Below, in pieces: positions 1,210 to 49,212 of a stretch of 64,000 bases of DNA; positions within the stretch are counted from its first letter, which is position 1; every line of letters starts with the position of its first letter. The notes under the pieces are model-generated. The model was not told the origin of the DNA. It saw only the letters and a list, made by a program, of their open reading frames with translations, and ran no database searches. Both the position numbers and the translations under genes were made by a program. This DNA is from Parcubacteria bacterium GBS-2 (lineage in GTDB: Bacteria; Patescibacteriota; Minisyncoccia; Minisyncoccales; GBS-2), in contig LEKP01000003.1 of NCBI GenBank assembly GCA_001443025.1, positions 22,652-86,651 of the forward strand. The letters run 5' to 3'.

Positions 1210-1557
1210 TAACTGGAAAAGATGAGTTTTAACTGCTAGTCAAGAGCCAATTCGCCAATTAGTAGCGCTCCCCTCAATCCCTTACGGGACTTACAGGTGC
1301 GCCCTATCAAGGTCGTAGTCTCCAACCTGGCTCAAGGGGACCTAATCTTGGGGTGGGCTTCGAGCTTAGATGCTTTCAGCTCTTATCCCGTCCCGACGTG
1401 GTTACTGGGCTGTGCGGCTGGCGCCACAACCCATACGCCAGAGGTCAGTTGACCCCGGTCCTCTCGTACTAGGGGCCACTCCCCTCAAGTCCCCAGACGC
1501 CCGCGGTAGATAGGGACCGTACTGTCTCACGACGTACTGAACCCAACTCACGGGTCT

Positions 1558-1588
<31 letters not shown>

Positions 1589-2404
1589 GCTTCTCCACCC
1601 CCAGGATGAGACGAGCCGACATCGAGGTGCCGAACAGGGCCGTAGATGTGAACTCGCGGGCCCTACCAGTCTGTTATCCCCGGCGTAACTTTTGGCCGAT
1701 GATCTCCCCCCTTCCTACAAAGGAGGGTCGGTTCACTAGGGCCGGGTTTCCCCTCTGCTCTCTGCGTCCAGATCGCAGTCAGGCCGGCTTATGCCCTTGC
1801 ACTTTAAGGGCGATTTCCATCCGCCCCAAGCCGACCTTATGCGCGCCCTCGTTACTTTTTAGAGGGCAGATGCCCCATCTAAACTGCCTCGGTGGCACTG
1901 TTCCCACCTTAGCTTGGTTTTTGCCCTAAGCTAAAGTTGAGTTAGAACTTTAGCCTCCAGTGGCGGGTGTTCCATTGGCGGCTCCAGCAGGCCCGGAGAC
2001 CTGCCTTCATAGCCTCCCCGCTACGCTATGCACCAGAAACCAAAGTTCAATACCACCTAGCAGTAAAGCTGCCGGGGTCTTTCCGTCTAGCCGCGGGTAG
2101 GGTGCATCTTCACACCCACTGTATTTTCACCGGGCAGCTGGGGGAGACAGTTCCCCAGTGGTTAAGCCTTTCATGCAGGCCGGAACTTACCCGACAAGGG
2201 ATTACGCTACCTTCGGACGGTCAGAGTTACCGCCGACGCTTACCCGTGGCTTGAGCCGGTGAACTCCCAGAAAAACTCCAGGAATCCCCAGCCGTAACAC
2301 ACGGGCGCTGGTCAGGCCTCAGCCCCTATACATCAGCTTTCGCTTTTTAGCAGGGACCTGTGTTTTTGTTAAACAGTCCCCAGGGAAACTTTCGCTGCGA
2401 CCAG

Positions 2405-2552
2405 ACGCCTCGCTACCGCGAGCCGTAGTAATTAGTTGATTAGTAATTTAGCTGATTAGTAAATTAGCAAATAAATGCTAATTTACTAAAGGTCGCGAAA
2501 GCGACCGTACTAATTTACTAATTACTCCGCTTCGCGATAGCGAAGCGCTGGC
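2405..2552 (-). other. ~125-nt AT-rich expansion segment inside 23S (helix-63 region by alignment from memory)
   Basis: Lies between the conserved blocks CCGTAACTTCGGGAGA and CTGTTTAACAAAAACACAG. Contains reiterated ATTAGTAA words that fold back on each other, plus GC hairpins GGTCGCGAAAGCGACC and GCTTCGCGATAGCGAAGC. Confidence 0.6.
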
Positions 2553-3012
2553 AACCCATCTCCCGAAGTTACGGGTAGCTTTTTTGCCGAGTTCCTTCCC
2601 CAGCTTTCACCCGTTGGCCTTGGTATTCTCTACCAGCCCACCTGTGTCGGTTTGCGGTACGGTTACCTAGGAGTTAACCCTACGGGCTTTTCTAGGAAGA
2701 GGATTCATCAGGAACCCCGGAAAATCCGGCTGAGGGAAAGCCAATAATCCCTCCCAACTACTCCTCTTCGTCACCCTTCAGAACCCCTAGGTAGGGTGGG
2801 AATATTAACCCACTGCCCGTCAGGTGCGCCTTTCGGCTTCCCCTTAGGACCGCCTAACCCGTGGTCGATCACCGTTGCCACGGAAACCTTGGGCTTTCGG
2901 CCCCTGGGGCTTTCACCCAGGTTGCGGTTACTCATGCCAACATCCGCACTCGCCACCAGTCCACCAAGCCTCACGGCTTGACTTCAACCCGGTGGCGACG
3001 CTCCCCTACCAA

Positions 3013-3116
3013 CCACTGCTCCGCAGTGAAATTCCAAATCACAAAATCCAAATTCCAAACATTATTAATTTATGATTTGGTGCTTGGAATTTGGTGCTTC
3101 CATTGCGGAGCAATGG
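3013..3116 (-). other. IVS-like extended hairpin in the 23S helix-45 region
   Basis: About 104 nt replace the short hairpin between CACCGAAG... and ...GGTAGGGGAGCGT. The basal stem CCATTGCTCCGCAATGG / CCACTGCTCCGCAGTGG is near-perfect, and the AT-rich distal arm is self-complementary. Confidence 0.6.
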
Positions 3117-3801
3117 CTCCCCATCTTCGGTGGAGAGCTTAAGCCCCGTTAAATCTTCGGCGCAGGGTCCCTCAACTGGTAAGCTGTTACGCACTTTTTA
3201 AAGGATAGCTGCTTCTAAGCTCACCTTCCAGTTATCTAAGGGACCCCACTTCCTTCTTTTAGCACTTAGCCCTCACTTAGGGACCTTAGATTGGGGTCTG
3301 GGTTGTTCCCCTCTCGACCTAGGACCTTATCGCCCTAAGTCTGACTGCCAGGATGTTAGCAGATAGCATTCGGAGTTTGGTAGGAATATCTGGCAAAAAC
3401 CACGATATTCCTTCCAGTGCTCTACCGCCATCTGCAAACTCCTGACGCTATGCCCAAACATATTTCGGGGAGAACCAGCTATTCCCGAGCTAGTTTAGCC
3501 TTTCACTCCTTGCCCCAGCTCATCCCAAGGTTTTGCACAACCCACGGGTTCGGGCCTCCAGGAAGATTTCTCTTCCCTTCACCCTGGCCAGGGCAAGCTC
3601 GCTCGGCTTCGGGTCTCTCACCCTCCCCTAACGGGCTATTCACCCTCGCTTTCACTCTGCCTACGGGGGATCACCCCTTAGACATGGGGAGAATGAGAAC
3701 TCGTTGGCTCCTGCTCCAATAGGTACGCAGTCAGGGAGAATTTTCTCCCCTCCTGCTCCTTGTGAGTGGATGGTTTCAGGTTCTGTTTCACCCCCCTCAC
3801 C

Positions 3802-3835
<34 letters not shown>

Positions 3836-4538
3836 GCACTATCGGTGTGCGGGAGATATTTAGCCTTGGGAGGTAGTCCTCCCTGCTTCCCACAAGGTTT
3901 TCTTGGCCTCGTGGTACTCGGGGTATAAGACCTGAGAGTTCTCTCCCTTTCGCCTACGGGGCTTTCACCCTCTATGGCAGTCCGTTCCAGGATCTTTCGG
4001 CTAGAGAGAGAATTTATAACTCTCTGAGGATTTTCTCCTCCGTCTTACCCCCACAACCTCCCCCCAGATGTATATCTGGGGGGGTTTGGGCTCCTCCCTT
4101 TTCGCTCGCCGCTACTCAGGGAATACCTTTTGGTTTCTTTTCCTCCGGGTACTGAGATGTTTCACTTCCCCGGGTCTCGCCTCCCCAGGAATTCTCCTGG
4201 AAGGATGAGTGGGGTTTTCCCACCCAGGTTTCCCCATTCGGGAATCCCGGGATCACAGGTTGCTACGCACCTCCCCCGGGCTTATCGCAGCTACGCCACG
4301 CCCTTCATCGCTCCCCGCACCCAAGGCATCCTCCATCCACCCATAAAAGGCTCTTGACTAGCAACCAAAACCCACCTTTGACTCAGAAACCAAACAACCA
4401 ATTCCCTATTCACTTTTAAAGTTCTTCCATCAATCAAACAACCGCCTCGGAGGCGGTTGTTCCAAGAAATTAAGGAGAACTTAAAAATCTAACCGCCTCC
4501 TTTCAATCGATTCATAATTATTTCCTCCATCAATTTCA

Positions 4539-4587: not shown

Positions 4588-5274
4588 TTATCTTTCAGAA
4601 ATTTTTTTTCTTATTTCTTCAATCAATTTTGCAGCTGCATCCTTTCCACCTAATCCAAAAGCTAATCCCAGTGCCAAAGAAATAGTACCGATCAACCCAA
4701 AAATCAAAGCATTAACAATCTGAGGAGTTACTCCAAGTTGAAGCAAAATCGCCAATGTAGCAAAAACATAAACTGCTCCTTTCACTAAAGTTCCAAAAAA
4801 TCCTGCATAGCCAACCTCTATTTTCTTTACGGACGCCTTAACTACTTTCTCTAAAATATCGGCAATAATAATCGCAACTACAAAAATTACCACTGCAACT
4901 ATTAAATTCGGTAGCCATAAAACTATTCCTCTTAAAAATTCGGCAAATTGAGTCAATCCTAAAATTTCAACTGCTGCTAACAGAAAAACGATCACTAAAA
5001 TCCATCTGAAAATTTCTCCAATGAATTCTGAGACAGCGACTTTAATTTCTGCTTTTTCTAATGCTTCTTTCCATCCAGCCCTTTCAAAGAATCTATCTAG
5101 CTTTATTTTCCTTAAAACCCCACCAATCATTTTCCCAATTACCAGGGCAACAAACCAACCAACGATAAATACAATCGTTGCTCCGATTAACTTTGGCAAA
5201 AAGAACAGAAAGCCCTTCCAAAGATTCTGCAAGGCTTCCAGAGTAATTAAGGACCAATTTTGAATCATTGTCAT
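4588..5274 (-). CDS. Small multi-pass membrane protein, mechanosensitive-channel-like (conserved TM-helix repeats)
   Basis: 228 aa with four or more hydrophobic helices and repeated charged linkers. Resembles the 'conserved TM helix' MscS-related family from memory. No search was run. Confidence 0.45.
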   Translation of the reverse strand: MTMIQNWSLITLEALQNLWKGFLFFLPKLIGATIVFIVGWFVALVIGKMIGGVLRKIKLDRFFERAGWKEALEKAEIKVAVSEFIGEIFRWILVIVFLLAAVEILGLTQFAEFLRGIVLWLPNLIVAVVIFVVAIIIADILEKVVKASVKKIEVGYAGFFGTLVKGAVYVFATLAILLQLGVTPQIVNALIFGLIGTISLALGLAFGLGGKDAAAKLIEEIRKKISER

Positions 5275-5309: not shown

Positions 5310-5381
5310 TGGACCCGGTGGGATTCGAACCCACGACCTCCGCATTGCAAATGCGGCGTTCTACCACTAAACTACAGGCCC
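5310..5381 (-). tRNA. tRNA-Ala (anticodon UGC)
   Basis: Cloverleaf folds by hand: acceptor GGGCCTG/CGGGTCC with a G3:U70 pair, anticodon loop TTTGCAA, T-loop TTCGAAT, discriminator A. No encoded CCA. Confidence 0.95.
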
Positions 5382-5541
5382 AGTCGCTCGCCTCTCCAGC
5401 GCTATCGCACTGGCGCCCCGCCGTGAAATTTTTCACGCGGGGCTTCGGCTCGCTCTCCATAGGGGAAACCGAGGTTCCTCCCTCTCCATGGCGCTCAGAC
5501 ATCTCTTTAAAGGAGATTGTCTTCGCTGTCATCCCCTCTTT
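5382..5541 (-). ncRNA. GC-rich structured spacer between rpmG and tRNA-Ala (modules X+Y of a repeated tRNA-leader element)
   Basis: Module Y (5385-5443) matches 30799-30857 at 41 of the first 43 nt. Module X (5459-5484) is identical over 26 nt to 5873-5898. It forms three hairpins and ends 3-4 nt before the tRNA 5' end. Confidence 0.5.
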
Positions 5542-5703
5542 CTATCTTATTTCCTTGTGTATTGTATGTTTTTTACAAAATTTGCAGTATTTTTTCAACT
5601 CCAGTTTTTTCTTTCCACCTTTCTTTGATTTTCTTTTGTAATAATTTATTCTTTTGCACTCTGAACACTGAAGTTTTGTCAATTGTGATTTTTTCTTTGG
5701 CAT
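5542..5703 (-). CDS. rpmG: 50S ribosomal protein L33
   Basis: Absent from the track (53 aa). Hand translation: MPKKKSQLTKLQCSECKRINYYKRKSKKGGKKKLELKKYCKFCKKHTIHKEIR*. It has the two CxxC zinc-ribbon pairs and the LELKKYC...HT.HKE signature of L33. Confidence 0.85.
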   Translation of the reverse strand: MPKKKSQLTKLQCSECKRINYYKRKSKKGGKKKLELKKYCKFCKKHTIHKEIR

Positions 5704-5704
5704 G

Positions 5705-5776
5705 AGCCAGAGGTGGGAATTGAACCCACGACCTTTCCCTTACCAAGGGAACGTTCTACCACTGAACTACTCTGGC
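5705..5776 (-). tRNA. tRNA-Thr (anticodon GGU)
   Basis: Acceptor GCCAGAG/CTCTGGC, anticodon stem-loop TTCCC-TTGGTAA-GGGAA, T-loop TTCAATT, discriminator U. No encoded CCA. Confidence 0.95.
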
Positions 5777-5777
5777 G

Positions 5778-5862
5778 TGGGTGGGGCAGGATTTGCACCT
5801 GCGGAGGCAAAACTGCCGTCTGGTTTACAGCCAGACCCCTTTGTCTACTCGGGAACCCACCC
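5778..5862 (-). tRNA. tRNA-Tyr (anticodon GUA), class II with long variable arm
   Basis: Acceptor GGGTGGG/CCCACCC, anticodon stem-loop TCTGG-CTGTAAA-CCAGA, variable arm CGGCAGTTTTGCCTC. A single nucleotide separates it from tRNA-Thr. Confidence 0.95.
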
Positions 5863-5927
5863 TTTTCCCTCAATAGGGGAAACCGAGGTTCCTCCCTCAA
5901 TTGCGCTCCACTCACCCCTCCGCTTTG
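5863..5927 (-). ncRNA. GC-rich spacer between tRNA-Ile and tRNA-Tyr (module X copy)
   Basis: Contains the 26-nt block ATAGGGGAAACCGAGGTTCCTCCCTC (plus-strand 5873-5898), identical to 5459-5484. Folds as GGGAGGAAC-CTCG-GTTTCCCC. Confidence 0.4.
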
Positions 5928-6071: not shown

Positions 6072-6266
6072 TCAAAAATTCCTCTTTAGTCCAAAAACTT
6101 TTATTTTTTGATTCTCAAATTTCTTCAAAAATTCAAAACTTCCATCACTTGAACCATCGTCAACAAAAATAACTTCGTCTCCAAAATCAATTTCTTTTAA
6201 AACCTTAGCAATTTTGCCTACCCTTTCTCTTTCATTGAAAACTGATAAAATTGTAGAAACTCTCAT
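6072..6266 (-). pseudogene. Family-2 glycosyltransferase N-terminal fragment (64 aa)
   Basis: MRVSTILSVFNERERV...VIFVDDGSSDGS is the N-terminal Rossmann/DxD part of a GT2 enzyme. The ORF stops after 64 aa, whereas GT2 enzymes are usually over 200 aa. Confidence 0.55.
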
Positions 6267-6808
6267 TTTTCCAAAACAAAAATTTTCTTTTTTATCAAAA
6301 AATCTTTCTCTGAAATTAACTTTAAGCCAAGTTTTTTAAAAATTTCTTCCCACTCTTTTTTAGTGTGAAAATTAAATTTTGGAGATTTTCCAAAAAACAA
6401 ATTCCAACTTATCCAGTGAAAAAAACAATAAAGTTTTCCTAAAATTCCTTCTGGTAAATCTTCAAAAATAATTATTCTCTTTCCAACTCTTTTTGCCTCT
6501 TGCAAAATTGAAATTGGATCTTCTGTGTGGTGCAAAACAAAAGAAATTATTACTAAACCGAAAAAATTTTCAGGAAAAGGTATTTTTTTGCCATCGTAAA
6601 TTTTGAATGGAATATTGCAAACTCTTTTATCAACAATGTCTATTCCAATAACTTCTTTTTTCAATCTCTCTCTTATTTTTTCTCCTAAAATTCCAGAGCC
6701 ACAACCTAAATCCAAAATTTTCTCACCTTCCAAAAACTTCTCAATTTCATTTACCATCTTTTCTGCTGCAATCTCATAGAATCGCTGAAAAATCTTCCAA
6801 AAGCTCAT
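6263..6808 (-). CDS. Class I SAM-dependent methyltransferase
   Basis: Motif I ILDLGCGSGILG and the post-I acidic GIDI; 181 aa. Confidence 0.75.
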   Translation of the reverse strand: MSFWKIFQRFYEIAAEKMVNEIEKFLEGEKILDLGCGSGILGEKIRERLKKEVIGIDIVDKRVCNIPFKIYDGKKIPFPENFFGLVIISFVLHHTEDPISILQEAKRVGKRIIIFEDLPEGILGKLYCFFHWISWNLFFGKSPKFNFHTKKEWEEIFKKLGLKLISEKDFLIKKKIFVLEK

Positions 6809-7278
6809 TTTTTCTTTGAAAAGCTTCCAAAGACCAAATCTGGTATTAACTTTTTAAGATCTTTTGTAAAAATTTTTATCGAAAAATTCCAATCTCCACC
6901 GTTTAAAATGATTTCTTTTTCTCTCTTTATCGAATTGTCAACAAAAGTTTGGCATTTCCATAAATTCCCAAAAGGAGGAATCGCTCCCAGTTTTACTCCT
7001 TTTATTCTCTTTTTAATTAATCTTTCAGATGCCAACTCAATTTTTTCTTTATCTATTTTCTTTTTAATTTTTTTAAGATCAAGCTTTTTACTTGCTGGAA
7101 TTAAAACAAAAACCAAAGAATTATTCGCTTTTAAAATCAAGGTCTTTCCAACAATTTTTTCAGGAACTTTTAAAGTTTGAGATTTATCGAAAGCAGTAAA
7201 AACGGTTTTGTGTTTGATTATCTCGTACTTTACTTTTGCTTTCTCTAAAAAATTAATGATTCTTTTTGATACAGCCAT
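6805..7278 (-). CDS. YbaK/ProX-type aminoacyl-tRNA deacylase-like protein
   Basis: From internal Met (MAVSKRIINFLEKAKVKYEIIKHKTVFTAFD...GAIPPFG...ILNGG) the sequence resembles YbaK/EbsC-fold proteins. The track ORF's extra 64 N-terminal codons overlap the 16S trailer and processing stem, so I discarded them. Confidence 0.6.
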   Translation of the reverse strand: MAVSKRIINFLEKAKVKYEIIKHKTVFTAFDKSQTLKVPEKIVGKTLILKANNSLVFVLIPASKKLDLKKIKKKIDKEKIELASERLIKKRIKGVKLGAIPPFGNLWKCQTFVDNSIKREKEIILNGGDWNFSIKIFTKDLKKLIPDLVFGSFSKKK

Positions 7279-7288
7279 TCTTTTTAAA

Positions 7289-7316
7289 ATTTTACAAAAT
7301 AAAAAAGGCTTGTCAA
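7289..7316 (-). promoter_or_regulatory. Promoter of the ybaK-like gene
   Basis: Minus strand TTGACA (7311-7316), 16 nt, TAAAAT (7289-7294), 10 nt before the ATG at 7278. Confidence 0.45.
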
Positions 7317-7323
7317 TCAAGCC
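7296..7323 (-). terminator. Terminator-like hairpin after the 16S transcription unit
   Basis: Minus strand GGCTTG-ATTGA-CAAGCC followed by TTTTTTATTTT. It lies ~45 nt downstream of the 16S 3' processing-stem strand. Confidence 0.5.
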
Positions 7324-7365
7324 GTTCTGGTTATCTAGTTGTCTGGTTATTTGGTGGAATGGTTG

Positions 7366-7391
7366 GGAAAGTTCCTTTGAGTTGTCCCGAC
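7366..7391 (-). other. 16S 3' processing-stem strand
   Basis: RNA-sense GUCGGGACAACUCAAAGGAACUUUCC is complementary (25 Watson-Crick pairs + 1 G:U) to the leader segment encoded at 9391-9416. Confidence 0.7.
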
Positions 7392-7858
7392 CCAGTCGAG
7401 ATTTAGGGCTCCTCGACCAACACCCTAGGATCAAGAAGGGAATTCCATCTCCTTGATCCCAGTCGACCAAAAATTTAATGAGTGATCCACGGGCACCTTC
7501 CGGTACCCGTACCTTGTTACGACTTCGCCCCTCTCACCGGTCCCAGGCTAGTCCAGCTTCCGCTGGGTTTCGCCTGTTACCGGCTCGCTTGGCGTGACGG
7601 GCGGTGAGTACAGGGCTCGGGAACGTATTCACCGGAACATGGCTGATTTCCGGTTACTAGCGATTCCTGCTTCACGGGGTCGAGTTGCAGACCCCGATCC
7701 GAACTGGGGCGGCTTTTAAGGGATTAGCTCCGCCTTACGGCTTGGCAACCCTTTGTAGCCGCCATTGTTCCACGTGTGCAGCCCAGGGCATAAGGGCCAT
7801 GCTGGCCTGGCGTCGTCCCCACCTTCCTCCGGCTCAAACCGGCAGTCCCGCATGACAT

Positions 7859-8172
7859 CCCCCGCACCACTTTTAGCTTCAAGCTAATAAGCAATTTTTA
7901 ATTCTTTTCAGAAGTTCTTGTTTTGCCCTGCCATGGTATTTTAATCTTCTTTCTCTTAAGGTAGCATCTTTTTCACTTGAATATGCTTCAACATAAATGA
8001 GCCTCCATTTTCCCTTTTCCTTAGTAAATCTCGATCTCCCAATTCTATGTTCTTCCAGTCTTCGTTTTAAATCTTTCGTTTTTCCAATATAAAGTTCTTT
8101 CGTTATTTCATTTTGAAGAAGGTATACATACCACCACATTATTAAATCTTAAAACCAAAAGTGGTGCGGGGG
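7859..8172 (-). mobile_element. Stem-flanked insertion in 16S (helix-39 region) carrying a GIY-YIG ORF
   Basis: A perfect 16-bp inverted repeat, CCCCCGCACCACTTTT (7859-7874) / AAAAGTGGTGCGGGGG (8157-8172), brackets an AT-rich 282-bp core. The core is almost entirely ORF 7879-8139. Flanking sequence resumes conserved 16S (…GGGACTGCCGG…). Confidence 0.65.
7879..8139 (-). CDS. GIY-YIG nuclease-domain protein (YhbQ/UPF0213-like), encoded inside the 16S insertion
   Basis: WYVYLLQNEITKELYIGKTKDLKRRLEEHR...RLIYVEAYSSEKDATLRERRLK matches the GIY...YIG...R...E catalytic layout. Same orientation as the rRNA. Confidence 0.8.
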   Translation of the reverse strand: MWWYVYLLQNEITKELYIGKTKDLKRRLEEHRIGRSRFTKEKGKWRLIYVEAYSSEKDATLRERRLKYHGRAKQELLKRIKNCLLA

Positions 8173-8944
8173 CAAACATGCGGCGAGGGTTGCGCAGGTT
8201 TTGGCATCTAAGCTTGCGCCTCACGGTACCTGCTGACGACGGCCATGTAGCACCTGTGCCAGTGTCCTTGTGGAACCCCACGGTTTCCCGCAGGTTTCAC
8301 TGGCATGTCAAGCCCTGGTAAGGTTCCACGGTTGTCGTCGGATTGAGCCACATGGACCACCGCTTGTGCGAGCCCCCGTCTATTCCTTTGAGTTTCACCC
8401 TTGCGAGCGTACTTCCCAGGCGGGGCACTTAACGCGTAAGCTTCGCCACCCACAGGGTCGACACTGCAGGCAGCTAGTGCCCATCGTTTAGGGCGTGGAC
8501 TACAGGGGTATCTAATCCCCTTTGCTCCCCACGCTTTCGTCCCTCAGCGTCAGGGTCGGCCCAGCCGGCTGCCTTCGCTTTCGGCGTTCCTGCCGATATC
8601 AACGGATTTCACCCCTACACCGGCAGTTCCACCGGCCTCTACCGCCCTCTAGTCAAACAGTATCTCAGGCATTCCTCAGGTTGAGCCCGAGGTCTTTAAC
8701 CTGAGACTTGCTTGACCGCCTACGGTACCCTTTACGCCCAGTAAATCCGGCTAACGCTTGTGGCTCACGTATTACCGCTGCTGCTGGCACGTGATTGGCA
8801 GCCACTTATTCCTGCGGTACTCTCACCCCCCAGATATACATCTGGGGGGTTGCTCCCGCAGAAAAGGGGTTTACAACCCGAAGGCCTTCTTCCCCCACGC
8901 GGCGTCGCTGGGTCAGGGTTTCCCCCATTGCCCAATATTCTCGG

Positions 8945-8988
<44 letters not shown>

Positions 8989-9172
8989 GCGGCGGCCACC
9001 CTCTCAGGCCACCTACCCGTCATAGGCTTGGTGGGCCATTACCCCACCAACTACCTGATAGGCCGCGGGCCCTTCCCAGAGCGGTTGGGGTTTTACCCCT
9101 TCCCTTTACTGTTTGGGAATTTCACCCAAACAGACTATCGGGGATTAGCCTGGTTTCCCAGATTGTCCCCGT

Positions 9173-9235
9173 CTCTCCTCCGTCGCCCTTACGGGCTTTG
9201 GAGGACCCACCGTAGCTCGAGAGAGCGAAGGTGGG
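9173..9235 (-). other. ~63-nt GC-rich insertion near the 16S 5' domain
   Basis: Lies between GTAACACGTGGGTAACCTACCCCA and ACGGGGACAATCTGGGAAACC, where E. coli has a direct continuation (from memory). Forms hairpins CCCACC...GGTGGG and TCCTCC...GGAGGA. Confidence 0.5.
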
Positions 9236-9390
9236 TGGGGTAGGTTACCCACGTGTTACTGCCCCGTTCGCCAGGTACCAAGTACAGTATGAGAAACCCC
9301 ATACTGTCTTGGCCCTCTGACTTGCATGCCTTATCCACGCCGCCAGCGTTCAGCCTGGACCAGGATCAAATCCTCAAGAAAAGAAAGAGA

Positions 9391-21846: not shown

Positions 21847-23178
21847 TCAAAAACAAAATTTTACTTTTTGAAATTTTTTTCTAAAAGCCACGATCTCTTT
21901 TTTGAGATTTGAAAGGTTCTCTCTTTCTACTAAAGCTCTCTTAAAAAAGTGAGCTATTTTTATCATTTCTCTTTTTCCCATCCCAAATCTTGTCATTTCT
22001 TGAACTCCGATTCGAATACCAGAAGGATTTCTGGTAGCCTCTCTAGCATGGTCTTTCGGCAAAGCTATTTTGTTTACAATAATGTTTGCTCTTTCTAAAT
22101 TTTCTGCCACTGTTTTTCCTCCCCCAAAATTTTCAACGTTAACGATAATTTGGTGTGATTGAGTAAAGTCTTTTTCTTTCCCTAAAACCTTAAAACCTAA
22201 TTTAAAAAGCTCTTTTGCAAGGGTTTTTGCGTTTTCTACAATTTTTTCTGCGTACTTTTTGCCAAATTTTTTCATTTCTAAAGCAGTAATAGCTAAAGAA
22301 GGTAATCTAAAAATGTGATGATTAGAAACAATTCCTGGAAAAACAGCTCTTTGAATTCTTTTCCAAATCTTTTTATCTAGTCTTGGGCTTCCTAAAATTA
22401 TCCCTCCTTGTGGTCCTGGAAAGGTTTTGTGAGTTGAGGCAGTGATAATATCTGCCCCTTCTTTGAATGGATCTTGAAATTTTCCTCCATAGATTAAGCC
22501 AAAAACATGGGCAGCGTCGTAAACTATAATGGCTTTAGTGTACCTTCTTATTTCTTTTATTGGTTCAGGGAATAAAAACATCGATCTCCCAAGCATAATT
22601 AGTTTTGGCTTGAGTTTCTTGATTAACTTTATAGTTTCTCTTACGTTCAATTGCATTTCAGCTTCATCGAATGGCATCGAAACACTTTTTAAACCACAAG
22701 TTCCAGCAATTCCATACTCTGTTGAAGAAACATGGGCACCAAAAGTCAACCCTGGAGAAAGAAAAATATCTCCTGGCTTTAAAATGGCAGTGTACGTTGC
22801 TAAATTGGCTATTGCTCCAGAAATTGGTCGAACATCTACGTACGGAGTTTTAAACCTTCGAGAGAAAATCTTAATGCAAATTTTTTCTATCTCGCTTGAG
22901 AACTTAACTCCTTGATAATGTTCTTCAAATTCACCATTTATTGTCTCGTGTTCATTGTATCTACCCACAAAATCAGAAACTAAAAATTTCTCTGCCAAGG
23001 GCGAAAGAACATTCTCTGAGGCAATTAAATTTAGGCACTCGCTCCTCCAACGATTTTGATTTTTAACAATATTTTTGATTTTTCTTAAACCTTCTTTCAT
23101 CCAAAAACTAGGAAATTGTCCAGATTCAAATAAAGGGAAAATTGTTTTTTTCATTTTTAGCCTTCCCAAGTCGCCCAC
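21847..23178 (-). CDS. glyA: Serine hydroxymethyltransferase
   Basis: LNLIASENVLSP... and the PLP-lysine context TASTHKTFPGPQGG. Confidence 0.85.
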   Translation of the reverse strand: MGDLGRLKMKKTIFPLFESGQFPSFWMKEGLRKIKNIVKNQNRWRSECLNLIASENVLSPLAEKFLVSDFVGRYNEHETINGEFEEHYQGVKFSSEIEKICIKIFSRRFKTPYVDVRPISGAIANLATYTAILKPGDIFLSPGLTFGAHVSSTEYGIAGTCGLKSVSMPFDEAEMQLNVRETIKLIKKLKPKLIMLGRSMFLFPEPIKEIRRYTKAIIVYDAAHVFGLIYGGKFQDPFKEGADIITASTHKTFPGPQGGIILGSPRLDKKIWKRIQRAVFPGIVSNHHIFRLPSLAITALEMKKFGKKYAEKIVENAKTLAKELFKLGFKVLGKEKDFTQSHQIIVNVENFGGGKTVAENLERANIIVNKIALPKDHAREATRNPSGIRIGVQEMTRFGMGKREMIKIAHFFKRALVERENLSNLKKEIVAFRKKFQKVKFCF

Positions 23179-30722: not shown

Positions 30723-30794
30723 AGCCGGCGGAGGGATTTGAACCCACGACCCACCGCTTACAAGGCGGTTGCTCTACCACTGAGCTACGCCGGC
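30723..30794 (-). tRNA. tRNA-Thr (anticodon UGU)
   Basis: Acceptor GCCGGCG/CGCCGGC, anticodon stem-loop ACCGC-CTTGTAA-GCGGT, T-loop TTCAAAT (one U:U mismatch in the T stem), discriminator U. No encoded CCA. Confidence 0.9.
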
Positions 30795-31022
30795 ACCTCG
30801 CTCGCCTCTCCAGCGCTTTCGCGCTGGCGCCCCGCCGTGAATCCTCCACGCGGGGCTTCGCTGCCACCTCCTCCTGGTAGGTAGAAATTATTCTCTTACT
30901 TTTAGTACACGGGCTCGCTTCGTTCCACTCTTCATAGGGGAAATCTAGTTTTCCCTTGATTGTTGTTTTACTCACTCCTTCGTTATCGCTTCGGGAATTC
31001 TCTTTGCAGTCACTTCCCTCCT
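30795..31022 (-). ncRNA. ~230-nt structured leader upstream of tRNA-Thr(UGU) (long version of the tRNA-leader element)
   Basis: Module Y (30799-30857) is near-identical to 5385-5443. A module-X-like hairpin GGGAAAACTAGATTTCCCCTATG lies at ~30933-30958. Additional hairpins are present and there is no credible ORF. Confidence 0.45.
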
Positions 31023-31029
31023 GCTAGAT

Positions 31030-31057
31030 AGAATACTATGTTGATGTCTGACGTCAA
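31030..31057 (-). promoter_or_regulatory. Candidate promoter of the tRNA-Thr(UGU) leader
   Basis: Minus strand TTGACG (31052-31057), 16 nt, TATTCT (31030-31035). The -35 lies inside the palindrome ATGTTGACGTCAGACATCAACAT. Confidence 0.3.
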
Positions 31058-31198
31058 CATAACTTTCTGAAAGTTGCGATCTTTGTCGTCATTTTTCTTC
31101 CTAATTAAGGATTAATTTTTCAACCCTCGACTACGCTTCGCTTATTCTCTTCTGTCAAAAATCAATTTTTCCTTTTTAAAAAGTACCTAACCAGAAGA

Positions 31199-32776: not shown

Positions 32777-32801
32777 CAAAATATAAATGGTTTGATAAAA
32801 T
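32773..32801 (+). promoter_or_regulatory. Promoter of the repeat-protein gene
   Basis: TTGACA (32773-32778), 17 nt, TAAAAT (32796-32801). GGAGGTG at 32808-32814 lies 10 nt before the ATG at 32825. Confidence 0.55.
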
Positions 32802-32824
32802 GAAAACGGAGGTGAACTTTAAAA

Positions 32825-33955
32825 ATGACAGATGAAAAAGAGGTGAAGGTGTTTAAGTTATGGAGGGAACTCTTGGAACAAGGACCCACAAATGAAGATT
32901 TGCGCTATATCATTAAGTGGGTAGAACCTTTAAGGAAAGAGGCTGGGCAGAAACTCTTGGAACAAGGGCCAACAAAGGAAGATTTGTTCTATATCATTAC
33001 GTGGGTAGAACCTTTAAGGAAAGAGGCTTGGGAGAAACTCTTGGAACAGGGGCCCACAAAGGAAGATTTGCGCTATATCATTAAGTGGGTAAAACCTTTA
33101 AGGAAAGAGGCTTGGGAGAAACTTTTGGAACAAGGACCCACAAATGAAGATTTGCGCTATATCATTAAGTGGGTAGAACCTTTAAGGAAAGAGGCTGGGC
33201 AGAAACTCTTGGAACAAGGGCCAACAAAGGAAGATTTGTTCTATATCATTACGTGGGTAGAACCTTTAAGGAAAGAGGCTTGGGAGAAACTTTTGGAACA
33301 AGGACCCACAAATGAAGATTTGCGCTATATCATTAAGTGGGTAGAACCTTTAAGGAAAGAGGCTGGGCAGAAACTCTTGGAACAAGGGCCAACAAAGGAA
33401 GATTTGTTCTATATCATTAAGTGGGTAAAACCTTTAAGGAAAGAGGCTTGGCAGAAACTCTTGGAACAGGGGCCCACAAAGGAAGATTTGTTCTATATCA
33501 TTAAGTGGGTAGAACCTTTAAGGAAAGAGGCTTGGGAGAAACTTTTGGAACAAGGACCCACAAATGAAGATTTGCGCTATATCATTAAGTGGGTAGAACC
33601 TTTAAGGAAAGAGGCTTGGCAGAAACTCTTGGAACAAGGGCCCACAAATGAAGATTTGCGCTATATCATTGAGTGGGTAGAACCTTTAAGGAAAGAGGCT
33701 TGGCAGAAACTCTTGGAACAAGGGCCCACAAATGAAGATTTGCGCTATATCATTGAGTGGGTAGAACCTTTAAGGAAAGAGGCTGGGCAGAAACTCTTGG
33801 AACAAGGGCCAACAAAGGAAGATTTGTTCTATATCATTGAGTGGGTAGAACCTTTAAGGAAAGAGGCTTGGGAGAAACTCTTGGAACAGGGGCCCACAAA
33901 GGAAGATTTGCGCTATATCATTAAGTGGGTAAAAACCTTTAAAGAGAGAGGCTAA
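32825..33955 (+). CDS. Tandem-repeat protein: 13 x 28-aa helical-type units (LLEQGPT.EDL.YII.WV.PLRKEA..K)
   Basis: A 376-aa ORF with no signal peptide. After 15 N-terminal residues the whole protein is 28-aa units. Visibly GC-richer than its neighbours. Has its own promoter and terminator. Confidence 0.8.
   Translation: MTDEKEVKVFKLWRELLEQGPTNEDLRYIIKWVEPLRKEAGQKLLEQGPTKEDLFYIITWVEPLRKEAWEKLLEQGPTKEDLRYIIKWVKPLRKEAWEKLLEQGPTNEDLRYIIKWVEPLRKEAGQKLLEQGPTKEDLFYIITWVEPLRKEAWEKLLEQGPTNEDLRYIIKWVEPLRKEAGQKLLEQGPTKEDLFYIIKWVKPLRKEAWQKLLEQGPTKEDLFYIIKWVEPLRKEAWEKLLEQGPTNEDLRYIIKWVEPLRKEAWQKLLEQGPTNEDLRYIIEWVEPLRKEAWQKLLEQGPTNEDLRYIIEWVEPLRKEAGQKLLEQGPTKEDLFYIIEWVEPLRKEAWEKLLEQGPTKEDLRYIIKWVKTFKERG
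32870..33955 (+). repeat. 84-bp tandem repeat array, 12 full units + 1 truncated
   Basis: Units are ~90-100% identical at the DNA level. A 168-bp higher-order block (units 1-2) recurs as units 4-5. Confidence 0.95.
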
Positions 33956-34064
33956 GAAACTGCTAAAACGCACAAAAGAAGGCATTATGAAGGAAATTAG
34001 AAAACTCTACCCACCCTTATAAAGAGAGCCTCTCTTCCTCTATTTCCTTGGTTCTTTGGATACA

Positions 34065-46630: not shown

Positions 46631-49212
46631 CTTGATTTTTTCAAAAAGTATTTAACTGCCTCAAACAGGACTAAATTGATCAGGCCAAAAACGATCAAAA
46701 AAATCCATTCATAAATTCCAAGTGGCACTGTCTTCAGTAAAACTTGAAAAGGGGGAAAATAGATAGAAAAAAGCAAAAGGATCATTCCTAAAGTTAAAGT
46801 TAAATTTAAAACTTTATTCGAAAATGGATTGTATTCCCAAATGTTTTTTCTGAAGTTTTTGCAAGAAAAAGCATAGCAAAAAGAGCCAAAAGCAAAGCCA
46901 GCAAAGCAAAAAGTCCTCAGTTTTTCAATAGCTAATCCCTGGTTGTGCAAAAACCAAAACATCAAGAACAAAATAATATCAGTTAAAATTCCGCCAAACA
47001 AAAACAAATATACAATTTCTTTTGTTAAAAGAGGGACCTTTGGATTTTCTGGTTTTCTTTCCATTATTTCTTTTTCTTCCGGCTCAAAAGCAAAAGCTAT
47101 TCCTTGAGGACTTCCTTCAACAAAGTTTTTCCACAAAATCTGAATTGGTAAAACTGGTAAAGGCAATTTTGCCAAAAATGCTCCCAGAACCAGTAAAATT
47201 TCAGTAAAACACTCAGTGCACATGAATAAAATCGTCTTTCTAACATTATCTAAGATTCTTCTTCCTTCTCTTACTGCCTTAACAATCACTTCAAAACTGT
47301 CGTTTAGTAAAACCAAATCAGAAGCTTCTTTTGCCACTTCCGACCCAGAACCTAAGGCTACTCCAATATCTGCTTTTCTTAAAGCTGGAGCATCGTTTAC
47401 ACCATCTCCTGTCATTGCCACTACTTCTCCTTTTTCTTGGAATAAAGAAACAATCTTTGACTTATGAATAGGCTCTACCCTCGCAAAGATTTTAATTTCT
47501 TTTAATTTTTCTTTGAGTTTTTCTTCATCAATTTTCTCCAAATCTCTTCCTTCTAAAATGTTTTCTTCTTCTATTTTTAGCCCTAGTTCTTTTGCCACTG
47601 CTTTTGCAGTTAATTTGTGGTCTCCGGTTACAATCACTGGTAAAATATTTGCCATTTGACAGGTTTTAATCGCTTCTTTTACTCCTGGTCTTAAAGTATC
47701 AGAAAGAGCTAAAAACCCAGCAAACTTTAACCTTAAATTGAAAATTTCTTCTGGTAAAATTTTTTCTTTTTCAATTCCAGGAAGATAACCAGCTCCAACG
47801 ACTCTGTATCCTTCTTCCAAAAGCGCATTCAAACCCTTTTTTAATTTTTCTTTCTCGGGGGTATCCAAAAATTCCAATAGCTTTTCTGGAGCACCCAGAT
47901 AATAAAGATTTTTTTGGTTTCCTTCTCTGTAAATTGCCAAAGAAAATTTATACCTTGGTGAAAATGGTAAAAAATAGATTAAATCTTTTTCAAACTCTTT
48001 TTTATTCAAACCAATTTCTATTGCCTTTTCTAAAATCGCTTTCTCTGTTGGCCTTCCAACAATTTTCCATTTTTCTTTTGGATCTTTTGAATTTTCAATG
48101 AATGCTTCGGTACACAAAAGAGCAAATTTGATTGCTAAAAATTCATCGCCAACGATTTTTTGAACCTTCATTTTTCCTTCAGTCAAAGTTAAAGTTTTGT
48201 CAGTACAAATTACTGTCGTTGACCCCAAGGTCTCAACAGAAGCTAGTTTTCTTATTAGTCCTTGTTTTCTCAAAATTCTTTGTGCTCCCAAAGCCAAAGT
48301 AACAGTAATTGCAATCGGCAATCCCTCTGGAATTGAAGAAACTGCCAAAGCTACTACTGTTTCAAAAAGCAAAAATAAATTTTTTCTCAACTCTTCTCTT
48401 TGAAGACCAATTATGAAAACAATTAAAACAAAGAACAAAACCAAAATTGCAACTTGAATAGTAAATTTTTTTATTTTCCTTTGAAGCGGGGTCAATCTTT
48501 TTTCTTCTTTTTGAGCCAATTTTGCGATTTTACCAATTTCTGTATTTTGGCCAGTTCCAACAACGATTGCTTTTCCCCTTCCCTCTTCTATTGTCGTTCC
48601 CATGTAAACCATGTTTTCTCTATCTGCCAAAGGAGTATCTTCAGGTAATACTTCAGTATGTTTTAAAGATGGCCAAAATTCTCCAGTTAAAATCATTTCA
48701 TTTACTGTTAGATTCTGACTTTCAATTACCCTAGCATCAGCTGGAACTTTGTCTCCTGCAGAAAGCAAAATCAAATCTCCAGGAACTAATTCTCTAGCAT
48801 CAATGATTCTTTCTCTTCCTTCTCTAATTACTTTCGCTTCTATTTTTAAAATCTTTTTTAACTCTTCTAAAATTTTGATTGCTTTTCTTTCTTGATAAAA
48901 CCCCAAAAAAGCATTAAAGAGCAAAACTAAAAAAATCGCCAGGGCATCTAAAAACTGGTGAAAAACCAAACTCAAAAGAACAGCAAAGAGCAAGATTATG
49001 ATAAAAAGATGCTTAAACTGAGACAAAAACAAAGAAAAATTAGAAGATGTTTTTTCTTCAGGAATTTCGTTTTTCCCAAACTCTCTCTGTCTAATTTCAA
49101 TTTCTTTTTCGCTCAAACCCTCTTTTAAACTCGTTCTTTGAATTTTTTCAATTTCTTCAATTTTTAAATTGTGCCAAAAAACCTCAGACATTTTATTTGG
49201 TCGACTCTTCAA
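46627..49212 (-). CDS. P-type cation-transporting ATPase (P2-like) with atypical DKTLT phosphorylation motif
   Basis: PGD...GDKVPAD, TGE, ICTDKTLTLT, TGDHKLTA, GDGVNDAPAL and ~10 TM segments. Confidence 0.85.
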   Translation of the reverse strand: MKSRPNKMSEVFWHNLKIEEIEKIQRTSLKEGLSEKEIEIRQREFGKNEIPEEKTSSNFSLFLSQFKHLFIIILLFAVLLSLVFHQFLDALAIFLVLLFNAFLGFYQERKAIKILEELKKILKIEAKVIREGRERIIDARELVPGDLILLSAGDKVPADARVIESQNLTVNEMILTGEFWPSLKHTEVLPEDTPLADRENMVYMGTTIEEGRGKAIVVGTGQNTEIGKIAKLAQKEEKRLTPLQRKIKKFTIQVAILVLFFVLIVFIIGLQREELRKNLFLLFETVVALAVSSIPEGLPIAITVTLALGAQRILRKQGLIRKLASVETLGSTTVICTDKTLTLTEGKMKVQKIVGDEFLAIKFALLCTEAFIENSKDPKEKWKIVGRPTEKAILEKAIEIGLNKKEFEKDLIYFLPFSPRYKFSLAIYREGNQKNLYYLGAPEKLLEFLDTPEKEKLKKGLNALLEEGYRVVGAGYLPGIEKEKILPEEIFNLRLKFAGFLALSDTLRPGVKEAIKTCQMANILPVIVTGDHKLTAKAVAKELGLKIEEENILEGRDLEKIDEEKLKEKLKEIKIFARVEPIHKSKIVSLFQEKGEVVAMTGDGVNDAPALRKADIGVALGSGSEVAKEASDLVLLNDSFEVIVKAVREGRRILDNVRKTILFMCTECFTEILLVLGAFLAKLPLPVLPIQILWKNFVEGSPQGIAFAFEPEEKEIMERKPENPKVPLLTKEIVYLFLFGGILTDIILFLMFWFLHNQGLAIEKLRTFCFAGFAFGSFCYAFSCKNFRKNIWEYNPFSNKVLNLTLTLGMILLLFSIYFPPFQVLLKTVPLGIYEWIFLIVFGLINLVLFEAVKYFLKKSS

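Follow-up and report, generated by a model that had tools for sequence, protein, structure and literature searches.

The DNA studied here is a 64,000-nucleotide stretch of Parcubacteria bacterium GBS-2 (contig LEKP01000003.1, positions 22,652 to 86,651 of the forward strand; hereafter "the window", in whose own numbering its positions are given), which belongs to the candidate phyla radiation (CPR)/Patescibacteria and has a GC content of about 32%. Its 16S (7475-9381), 23S (1239-4356) and 5S rRNA genes and its five tRNA genes all lie on the minus strand. From the 16S to the 23S rRNA gene, the order is three open reading frames (ORFs), a promoter-like site, tRNA-Ile, a 64-nt spacer, tRNA-Tyr, tRNA-Thr(GGU), rpmG, a 159-nt GC-rich stretch, tRNA-Ala, a terminator-like hairpin and a mechanosensitive-channel gene, and the fifth tRNA gene, tRNA-Thr(UGU), is flanked by a small membrane-protein ORF and pheS. 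Here, we describe the GC-rich stretch that precedes tRNA-Ala, together with its counterparts in front of tRNA-Tyr and tRNA-Thr(UGU), as copies of one modular, structured element that recurs next to tRNA genes in related genomes.

The original prediction had held that GC-rich, multi-hairpin RNA built from two shared modules, X and Y, abuts the 5' ends of these three tRNAs and belongs to no recognised family. All the sequences that it quoted were found on the minus strand where it had placed them. Using blastn-short, we recovered the perfect identity (26/26 nt, E 2e-9) between module X of the Ala leader (5459-5484) and the sequence before tRNA-Tyr (5873-5898), as well as a module Y common to the Ala and Thr(UGU) leaders (5384-5447 against 30798-30860; 64 nt, 90.6% identity, E 2e-15), with unlike first loops and a stem change from U:G to C:G as had been described. 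A degenerate X pattern matched exactly the three X sites, including the variant before tRNA-Thr(UGU), and gave 0 matches in 100 shuffles, and the copies do stop 2-4 nt before tRNA-Ala, tRNA-Thr(UGU) and tRNA-Tyr on the same strand. These leaders are 65-230 nt long, folded, about 60% GC in a 32% GC genome and common to unrelated tRNAs, and the fold of the Ala leader reaches z = -5.5 against shuffles.

The prediction had also named the checks by which it should be judged: an Rfam scan, a covariance-model search, the presence of the motif beside other tRNAs in related genomes and statistical covariation. Scanning the window with Rfam 15 at gathering thresholds returned rRNA and tRNA only, and at E<=10 nothing overlapped the leaders except a 13-bit chance match on the opposite strand, and nine related loci gave the same result for their elements. 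The families covered include hammerhead, twister, HDV-like, pistol and hatchet ribozymes, riboswitches and T-box, as well as TwoAYGGAY, HEARO/omega RNAs, 6S, SRP and tmRNA. A covariance model (CM) built from 33 full-length copies of relatives and run on the whole window with filters off gave three significant matches, all on the minus strand and all at the predicted leaders (Table 1); a fourth match, at 22826-22945 (12.3 bits, 34% GC), is AT-rich, lacks the modules and was rejected as spurious.

Orthologous loci (L-numbered below) were fetched via homologues of PheS and of the channel protein, and similar sequence was found to precede tRNA-Met (twice), Asp, Tyr, Ala and Thr in these relatives. 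A strict pattern spanning X and a further hairpin (A, described below), GCCATGGAG-N12-35-CCCTATKGAGRG, derived from the relatives, then matched 107 stretches in JGI metagenomes, among which chance matches in coding sequences of unrelated organisms were mixed in; counting the window and the earlier loci, 75 sampled loci hold family matches. In 572 kb of related metagenome contigs, the CM gave 137 matches (123 distinct) at E<=1e-8. The same strict pattern matched 15 times in GTDB species representatives, always in unrelated taxa and, as we judge, by chance; its one match in viral contigs lies in a 116,382-bp contig resembling that of L076, a chance match of the metagenome scan, and is presumably the same chance match, and the 26 matches of a loose X-only pattern in viral contigs, all in phage or other coding sequence and mostly in one phage gene family, were likewise discarded as chance. 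When 161 matches of a hidden Markov model (HMM) were examined, 120 had a same-strand tRNA within 450 nt downstream, representing 22 anticodon types, while 15 reach contig ends and a handful are short opposite-strand matches to the palindromic X. A survey of 215 evaluable tRNA genes in family loci found at least 89 with an abutting element and 34 directly after another tRNA. In this sample, no element was ever seen at Cys, Gln, Glu, Lys, Ile(GAU) or several Arg, Ala and Leu isoacceptors, and the 16S and 23S leaders, which are AT-rich, have none. The motif therefore stands beside many tRNAs, and the recurrent, structured and unrecognised element that had been proposed is borne out by the Rfam negative, by these copies and by covariation well above the controls described below; what had been overlooked is that it forms a modular, mosaic repeat family with fast turnover.

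A full unit reads, from 5' to 3', AGGAAGAGGGGUGACAG, hairpin A, a (C)GCC linker, hairpin X, AGAG, the optional module Y and then 0 to about 5 nt before the tRNA, which a purine-rich tail abuts. In an alignment of 33 sequences, the U, G, A, A and G of the start region GGGGUGACAG are invariant and its other positions are at least 90% conserved. Hairpin A is closed by G-C and C-G pairs, which are followed by a symmetric tandem G.A/A.G loop and a stem of roughly 10 bp that leaves one purine unpaired and ends in an AU-rich loop; it exists in about 6-8 discrete variants, modules being recombined freely. Hairpin X consists of a CCAU/AUGG helix, a 2-nt bulge and the stem AGGGGAGAAACC..GGUUUCUCCCCU. 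In module Y, an outer helix joins the strand right after X to a "tail" right before the tRNA, and two hairpins lie inside: Y1, with an unpaired purine, which is long or reduced to a GNRA-like mini-hairpin, and Y2, with 7-8 bp and a GNNA loop. The outer strands are GAGCGAGCC/GGCGAGCGA in type Y-a; type Y-b has GCGGAGC on both sides and a flipped Y2, in which CCAG..CUGG becomes CUGG..CCAG. A second unit type (A'-X') replaces CCAU/AUGG by CAAU/AUUG and ends in UAUUGAGGGAAA. Some units are A+X alone and others A+X+Y; there are also tandems, in which an AU-rich linker connects the units and interrupts Y1, and truncated relics. The distances from X to the tRNA fall into discrete classes that agree with module content. 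Hairpin A, the Y outer helix and, in Y-b, Y1 all conserve tandem G.A/A.G loops, which in the two hairpins lie at the base; these loops are symmetric and lack the 3-nt bulge of a kink-turn (L7Ae-type) site. While the stems vary, the single-stranded motifs CCAUGGAG and CCCUAUGGAGAGCG are invariant and GAGCGA is nearly so.

Compared with this anatomy, modules X and Y and the Y stems were correctly recognised from the window alone, but the 5' hairpin A (5493-5526) was missed, X was drawn too short for want of its outer CCAU/AUGG helix, and the three-way junction that the tail GGCGAGCGA closes through the outer helix went unseen. The three sites were right too, although it had not been noticed that the Tyr copy is a truncated second-type unit (it matches the second unit of the relatives' "long" class in its 3' half) or that the Thr(UGU) leader is a mosaic, in which a decayed unit is followed by a linker and Y. 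A protein-coding reading of the region was ruled out: X measures 20, 24, 25 or 28 nt, Y1 is present, absent or miniature, the indels are not multiples of three, and the ORFs that overlap the leader region run on into the tRNA.

Pairing was assessed in two alignments, one made with MAFFT (A1) and a model-based one of 123 sequences that leans towards the model (A2). In A1, 98.3% of cells pair, against 35-52% with slid partners, 11 of the 29 pairs have double changes and none of 500 shuffles reached the observed covariation score; in A2, the corresponding values are 97.1%, 35-48% and 22 of 29 pairs. Pairs 22-48, 23-47 and 24-46 of A1, in hairpin A, show up to four Watson-Crick types each, likewise in A2. 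Pair 26-77 is AU in 41, UA in 27, CG in 21 and GC in 16 cases, and pair 87-181 of A2 is CG in 109 and AU in 9, which is the switch between CCAU/AUGG and CAAU/AUUG. Y2 covaries as well (UA:21/CG:12 and GC:21/AU:12). The Y outer helix, made in the common types of Watson-Crick pairs broken by tandem G.A, is fully Watson-Crick in a sub-class where it takes the forms CUUGCC/GGCAAG, CCUGCC/GGCAGG, UUUGCC/GGCAAA, UUCGCC/GGCGAA and CGAGCC/GGCUCG. Since the variation consists of a few discrete module variants that recombine, the independent events are fewer than the cell counts suggest. Altogether, these results show that the helices of the element are maintained by compensatory change and are under selection. 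The sense RNA (average fold about -69 kcal/mol) folds better than the antisense one in 41/41 copies, by 7.7 kcal/mol on average, and the sense strand is 63% purine; with the near-uniform orientation and the GNNA and G.A motifs, this favours a form of action as RNA on the tRNA strand.

Table 1. Features of the three leaders and their surroundings in the window, and copies that face tRNA-Gly in relatives (L-numbered loci, own numbering)
Feature	Position	Strand	Evidence or remark
CM match, Ala leader	5382-5544	-	142.9 bits, E 1e-43
CM match, Thr(UGU) leader	30798-30986	-	45.7 bits, E 5e-13
CM match, Tyr leader	5838-5926	-	23.8 bits, E 3.5e-6
Full element: start motif, A, X and Y (type Y-a)	5383-5541	-	between rpmG stop codon (5542-5544) and tRNA-Ala
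Purine-rich start motif AAAGAGGGGAUGACAG (family consensus AGGAAGAGGGGUGACAG)	5526-5541	-	conserved in 33-sequence alignment
Hairpin A	5493-5526	-	covarying pairs in A1 and A2
Extended hairpin X, holding module X as first drawn (5459-5484): CCAU/AUGG outer helix, 2-nt bulge, then GGGAGGAAC...GUUUCCCCU stem	5457-5491	-	RNAalifold helix, columns 54-94
Module Y, three-way junction	5384-5455	-	minimum free energy fold
Y outer helix, GAGCGAGCC with GGCGAGCGA	5447-5455 with 5384-5392	-	tandem G.A pairs inside
Y1 hairpin, Ala copy	5416-5442	-	
Y2 hairpin, Ala copy	5396-5413	-	
tRNA-Ala(UGC)	5310-5381	-	Rfam tRNA 75.6 bits, ARAGORN
Truncated second-type unit, filling the tRNA-Ile/tRNA-Tyr spacer	5863-5926	-	CM 23.8 bits, E 3.5e-6
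Parts of the Tyr spacer: A' relic (GCGGAGGGGUGAGUGGAGCG), X hairpin CAAU..AUUG, tail AGGGAAAA	X hairpin 5871-5903	-	
tRNA-Tyr(GUA)	5778-5862	-	directly followed by tRNA-Thr(GGU)
tRNA-Thr(GGU)	5705-5776	-	no element of its own
Mosaic leader of tRNA-Thr(UGU)	30795-31022	-	CM 45.7 bits
Thr(UGU) leader, 5' part: decayed second-type unit	X variant 30932-30962; outer-helix 5' strand GCGAGCC 30912-30918	-	
Thr(UGU) leader, middle: AU-rich linker and new unit start	30861-30911	-	linker agrees with that between units of the "long" class
Thr(UGU) leader, 3' part, with GGU tail	Y1 30830-30855; Y2 30810-30827; outer-helix 3' strand 30798-30806	-	
tRNA-Thr(UGU)	30723-30794	-	tRNA call
404-nt segment missing at the orthologous Thr(UGU) site of relatives	30795-31198	-	tRNA there directly after upstream ORF stop
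Gly-facing copies	L092 2514-2742; L065 5483-6051; L093 426-671; L101 3324-3540		
Gly-facing copies, further	L138 2196-2635; L144 2189-2620; L161 525-989		

Comparing orthologous loci then showed that copies are gained, lost, swapped, tandem-duplicated and truncated between close relatives, as judged from their sequences. At tRNA-Thr(UGU), L008 (PheS 84% identical) reads ...AAATAG-T-GCCGGCG where the window reads ...AAATAG-T-[403 nt]-GCCGGCG, so that in L008, as in L012 (74%), the tRNA lies at most 1 nt after the stop codon of the upstream ORF, with an overlap in L012; L013 has an unrelated AT-rich leader of 66 nt and no element, and L014 and L081 have A+X only. At tRNA-Ala(UGC), the spacer of L045 (channel protein 89% identical) is AT-rich, 29 nt long and devoid of the element, L044 has A+X with a second-type tail, L042 a mini tail, L070 Y-b and the window a full Y-a, which stops 2 nt (CU) short of the tRNA 5' end; past the 3' end of this tRNA comes the terminator-like hairpin. 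At tRNA-Tyr, L045 has a full element where the window keeps a relic only. Near-identical copies occur within a genome: the two X copies of the window are one genome-specific variant, and the two copies of L082 match over about 150 nt. Between filled and empty sites, we found neither terminal inverted repeats nor a target duplication, the old spacer being replaced and not split. Given orthologous tRNAs without the element or with other module combinations, and modules that are mosaic, in tandem or cut short, none of the copies is essential by itself. In L015, at about 990-1020, the intact tRNA-Thr(UGU) is closely preceded by a 5' fragment of another tRNA-Thr allele (GCCAGGGTAGCTCAATGGTAGAGCA...), which suggests that the tRNA gene was replaced at that locus. 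In addition, the RNase P RNA of L092 (3117-3491) contains the palindromic GC hairpin CCCGCCAGAAYATNTTCTGGCGGG as well as a closely similar one; in some elements (L083, L165, L107/L138), the same hairpin stands in for hairpin A or Y2, as if hairpin modules moved between RNA genes.

The 5' surroundings of the copies vary, some standing behind AT-rich heptamer arrays such as (ATTGCAA)n and others right after a stop codon or a tRNA. At many loci, among them L044 3390-3430, L072, L078, L013 2350-2387, L015 955-990 and, in the window, 31185-31198, a tRNA gene or an element is immediately preceded by a tandem array of (ATTGCAA)n, (TCTGGTT)n or (AGTGRYY)n; the spacings of these arrays do not fit the -35/-10 geometry of sigma-70 promoters. 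Consensus scanning placed a promoter-like TTGACG-16-TATTCT (31057-31030) upstream of the Thr(UGU) leader, and a TTGCAA-17-TATATT site about 5 nt before tRNA-Ile, which has an ordinary short leader.

The explanation to which we incline, with a confidence only slightly above even, is that the element is a lineage-restricted modular cassette, co-transcribed as leader or spacer of the tRNA precursor and cut off by RNase P. According to this model, the cassette would be transcribed with the tRNA, some copies bringing an AT-rich, promoter-like 5' part, it would fold on its own into self-contained hairpins, and RNase P would remove it at tRNA +1, giving a leader with a 5' end at or just upstream of the AGGAAGAGGGG motif and a sharp 3' end at tRNA -1; recombination or gene conversion would spread it and homogenise it among tRNA loci. 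A class A RNase P RNA exists in the clade (L092, 127.9 bits; the Rfam scan found none inside the 64-kb window), so that release at tRNA +1 would be the natural expectation. Because any one tRNA manages without it, the cassette is most likely tolerated, or mildly useful, as a leader and not essential as a determinant; it could serve to insulate tRNA folding from the upstream transcript, to carry a promoter, or to stabilise or pace the precursor at high temperature. The cassettes belong to one clade of CPR/Patescibacteria near Nealsonbacteria, which probably lives in hot springs. Labels on homologues at 63-66% identity place the window lineage near Nealsonbacteria/Parcubacteria, and its PheS protein has exact copies in metagenomes, one of which has a sample record name containing "GBSSSed77C"; read as hot-spring sediment at 77 C, this name makes the window species probably thermal.

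Several points weigh against the leader cassette, whose co-transcription and RNase P release are inferred here from sequence. Bacterial RNase P prefers a single-stranded leader, and the outer helix of Y-a, which ends 0-4 nt from the cleavage site, should hinder it; a passive leader also does not explain why the abutment is so precise. The wobble-pair strand test leaned weakly towards sense RNA (GU+UG 62 against AC+CA 43, p = 0.08). Among the 215 surveyed tRNAs, 92 lack both an element and a tRNA directly before them, a count that is inflated because second-type units were not modelled. Furthermore, some copies are no tRNA leaders at all. About 14 full-length copies are directed convergently at a tRNA 3' end, nearly always that of tRNA-Gly and once, in L087, that of tRNA-Lys(CUU). 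The Gly isoacceptors GCC, UCC and CCC are all represented, in three operon contexts and with one or two elements each, and these copies combine a fully Watson-Crick outer helix with an extra G-rich CUAGGGGURAGGGUGU before the antisense tRNA; where they are in tandem, the distal one ends in a remnant, 13-14 nt long, of the antisense tRNA-Gly 3' end. In L092, a facing and a normal copy stand back to back with starts only about 33 nt apart, so that a separate promoter for the facing copy would hardly fit between them. Lastly, four contigs (L102, L147, L083 and L137), taken as one orthologous locus, have the element followed by a structured non-tRNA region of about 170 nt. In L102 (1335-1505), this region has an 11-bp GC stem followed by a U-run, together with long-range complementarity (CCAAUCCUAAG/CUUAGGAUUGG and GUGGGUGCCAG/CUGGCGGCACCCAC), and matches nothing in Rfam.

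In our ranking, the leader cassette comes before its main rival, a DNA-level mobile element, an RNA acting in trans comes third, and a gating or self-cleaving leader is unlikely. We regard it as rather improbable that the element is a non-autonomous mobile element whose hairpins are recognised as DNA, similar to repetitive extragenic palindromes (REPs) and bacterial interspersed mosaic elements (BIMEs), to palindrome-associated elements (PATEs) of IS200/IS605 or to miniature integrative elements; it would target tRNA gene boundaries with its 3' end towards the gene, mostly at the 5' boundary and at the 3' one for tRNA-Gly, the RNA structure being a by-product. Only this reading accounts naturally for the copies that face all three tRNA-Gly isoacceptors and for the 13-14-nt relics in tandem copies, which look like a repeated attachment core, and it also fits the filled and empty orthologous sites, the tandem, nested and truncated copies with mosaic modules, the tRNA fragment at the Thr locus of L015, the palindromic hairpin shared with RNase P RNA and a wobble test that does not clearly favour RNA. 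Against it stand the replaced spacers without terminal inverted repeats or target-site duplication, a left border without constant target sequence, the absence of any transposase, integrase or reverse-transcriptase Pfam match among the genes listed around the loci in a protein look-up, copies that sit only at RNA genes and not in other intergenic regions, the 63% purine bias and better sense folding of 41/41 copies, and RNA-type motifs such as GNNA tetraloops and tandem sheared G.A loops.

Slightly less probable still, in our view, is that the released leaders are themselves the functional product, as abundant, multi-copy stable small RNAs whose 3' end RNase P sets at the adjacent tRNA, acting in trans, for example by titrating an RNA-binding protein through the repeated GGAG/GAGCG purine tracts and tandem-GA loops, or in cis on RNA polymerase, in the manner of processive antitermination RNAs. 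The highly conserved single-stranded motifs among varying stems, the very stable folds and the copies without a downstream sense tRNA (the L102/L147/L083 locus and those facing tRNA-Gly) would suit such RNAs, and because each genome has many copies, loss at a single locus would then be harmless. There is also a precedent in the spacer 3'ETS-leuZ of an E. coli tRNA precursor, which acts as a sponge (Lalaouna 2015, as cited in PMC7154689): it too is a non-tRNA part of a tRNA transcript that is released by processing and could function itself, but it is a single-locus 3' trailer that pairs with small RNAs via Hfq, whereas the cassette is a multi-copy structured 5' leader. On the other side, no partner protein or target was identified, and complementarity to RNase P RNA, 16S and 23S is not above chance, so that guide-like pairing was rejected (matches of 7-10 nt only). 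Shine-Dalgarno (SD) or anti-SD mimicry by the GGAGG-like tracts was set aside as well: the 3' end of the window 16S (about 7475-7490, minus strand) reads ...GGAUCACUCAUUAA, without the canonical anti-SD CCUCC, and no GGAGG precedes the start of rpmG, of pheS or of the channel gene. Since the window 16S lacks CCUCC, SD mimicry is unlikely, which counts against released RNAs. Kinship with rRNA-type leaders and boxA was excluded too, the 16S and 23S leaders being AT-rich and unrelated. Finally, we find it very hard to credit that a helix gates RNase P as a thermometer or ligand switch, or that the element cleaves itself to form the tRNA 5' end, both of which resemble roles in the original prediction. 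The Y outer helix does lie 0-4 nt from tRNA +1 with partly weak G.A pairs, the species is probably thermal, and engineered leader structures can control RNase P (PMC8925977). Yet many copies, of the A+X class, have no Y and a single-stranded tail, and outside the helices we saw no conserved junction that resembles a pocket. With no ribozyme or riboswitch model matching even at E<=10, and with an RNase P RNA in the clade, nothing points to self-cleavage or ligand binding; and an obligatory processing determinant is unlikely since the same tRNAs do without any element in close relatives (L008 and L012 for Thr(UGU), L045 for Ala).

Placed beside known systems, the leader cassette has several partial likenesses. 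BOX elements of Streptococcus pneumoniae (boxA-boxB(n)-boxC) are also lineage-restricted, multi-copy, modular intergenic repeats with extensive secondary structure, a variable number of modules and insertions that differ between related genomes; they are co-transcribed with neighbouring genes and were judged more likely parasitic than specialised (Croucher et al. 2011, PMC3049150). The cassette has the same modularity within one lineage, its classes being A+X, A+X+Y-a and A+X+Y-b besides tandem and truncated forms. BOX elements occur throughout intergenic regions of all kinds, whereas the cassette is confined to the flanks of tRNA (RNA) genes (contig ends aside, almost every full-length match adjoins a tRNA gene, the exception being the non-tRNA locus of four contigs), is fixed in orientation relative to the tRNA, ends a few nucleotides from its mature 5' end and resides in a CPR host with a small genome. 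We know of no sequence relation between the two and expect none. REPs and BIMEs are short GC-rich imperfect palindromes in composite mosaics, in which compensatory change conserves the hairpins and copy number and position vary between strains (PMC2817692). They differ in that REPs alternate in orientation within BIMEs and go with a gene for a REP-associated tyrosine transposase (RAYT), neither of which was seen for the cassette. REPs also carry a conserved 5' GTAG-type tetranucleotide and lie mostly downstream of ORFs. At the sampled loci, tandem units are co-oriented and have no GTAG head, RAYT not being searchable genome-wide, and the cassette is uniformly oriented, conserves long purine-rich single strands and lies upstream of tRNAs. 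Unlike in a miniature inverted-repeat transposable element (MITE), neither end, 5' (AGGAAGAGGGGTGACAG) or 3' (GGAGCGGAGCGA), is the reverse complement of the other, and there is no target-site duplication. Hairpins with unpaired bases near both ends, together with the lack of terminal inverted repeats and target-site duplication, would suit a PATE, but PATEs insert 3' of a fixed tetra- or pentanucleotide in genomes with a TnpA (Y1) gene, and no fixed left-border sequence was found.

With ordinary pre-tRNA leaders, the cassette shares position, strand and, presumably, removal by RNase P: all three window copies are contiguous with and upstream of a tRNA on the same strand, and RNase P occurs in the clade. 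Ordinary leaders, however, are short, unstructured and not conserved between tRNAs, as that of the window tRNA-Ile. RNase P defines the 3' ends of non-tRNA RNAs in MALAT1-mascRNA, in plant tRNA-snoRNA dicistrons and in mitochondrial tRNA punctuation. There too, a structured RNA lies directly 5' of a tRNA, so that RNase P would set a precise 3' end, but those systems are eukaryotic or organellar while the cassette, whose release as a stable RNA is putative, is bacterial. To our knowledge, no bacterial multi-copy example of an RNA with an RNase P-defined 3' end has been reported. The element would work like a pre-tRNA leader and evolve like a mosaic repeat of BOX or BIME type, and it is, by defining features, a member of neither.

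The window has further features of its own. The match to the 16S model spans 1907 nt for a 1533-nt model and that to the 23S model 3118 nt for 2925, so both genes contain insertions; the 23S gene of a relative holds a LAGLIDADG ORF (L042 7175-7636). The rRNA genes of the window are set apart by protein-coding genes (6072-7470 and 4588-5274). At 32784-34007, an 84-nt unit with raised GC is repeated 12 times in tandem (83-98% identical, the outermost 72%), which possibly encodes a repeat protein, and two pairs of direct repeats, 47294-47545 with 50303-50554 and 48249-48367 with 51210-51328, each 72% identical and about 3 kb apart, are probably paralogous neighbouring genes.

The family is apparently undescribed, given that no Rfam family, no true GTDB match to the exact pattern and, in our literature search, no paper describing such an element was found. 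Tentatively, and at well below even confidence, it could represent a new class of bacterial RNA elements, namely an abundant family of stable, RNase P-released leader RNAs with their own function, or a new mobile element that homes to tRNA ends. If the former is true, thermophilic CPR bacteria would use such leaders, for instance, for protein titration or for processive antitermination of untranslated tRNA operons; if the latter is true, homing to tRNA gene ends would explain the Gly-convergent copies and their 13-nt relics. For genome annotation, GC-rich islands of this kind could pass for genes or for assembly errors. For RNA biology, the family offers a covariation-supported fold with repeated tandem-GA helices and a helix that abuts the RNase P site, and with it naturally occurring substrates with structured leaders on which to study how RNase P deals with them, as well as a tractable case of concerted evolution or mobility of modules between RNA genes. 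If the description holds, an uncultured clade with minimal genomes spends a noticeable part of its scarce non-coding DNA on one tRNA-linked cassette.

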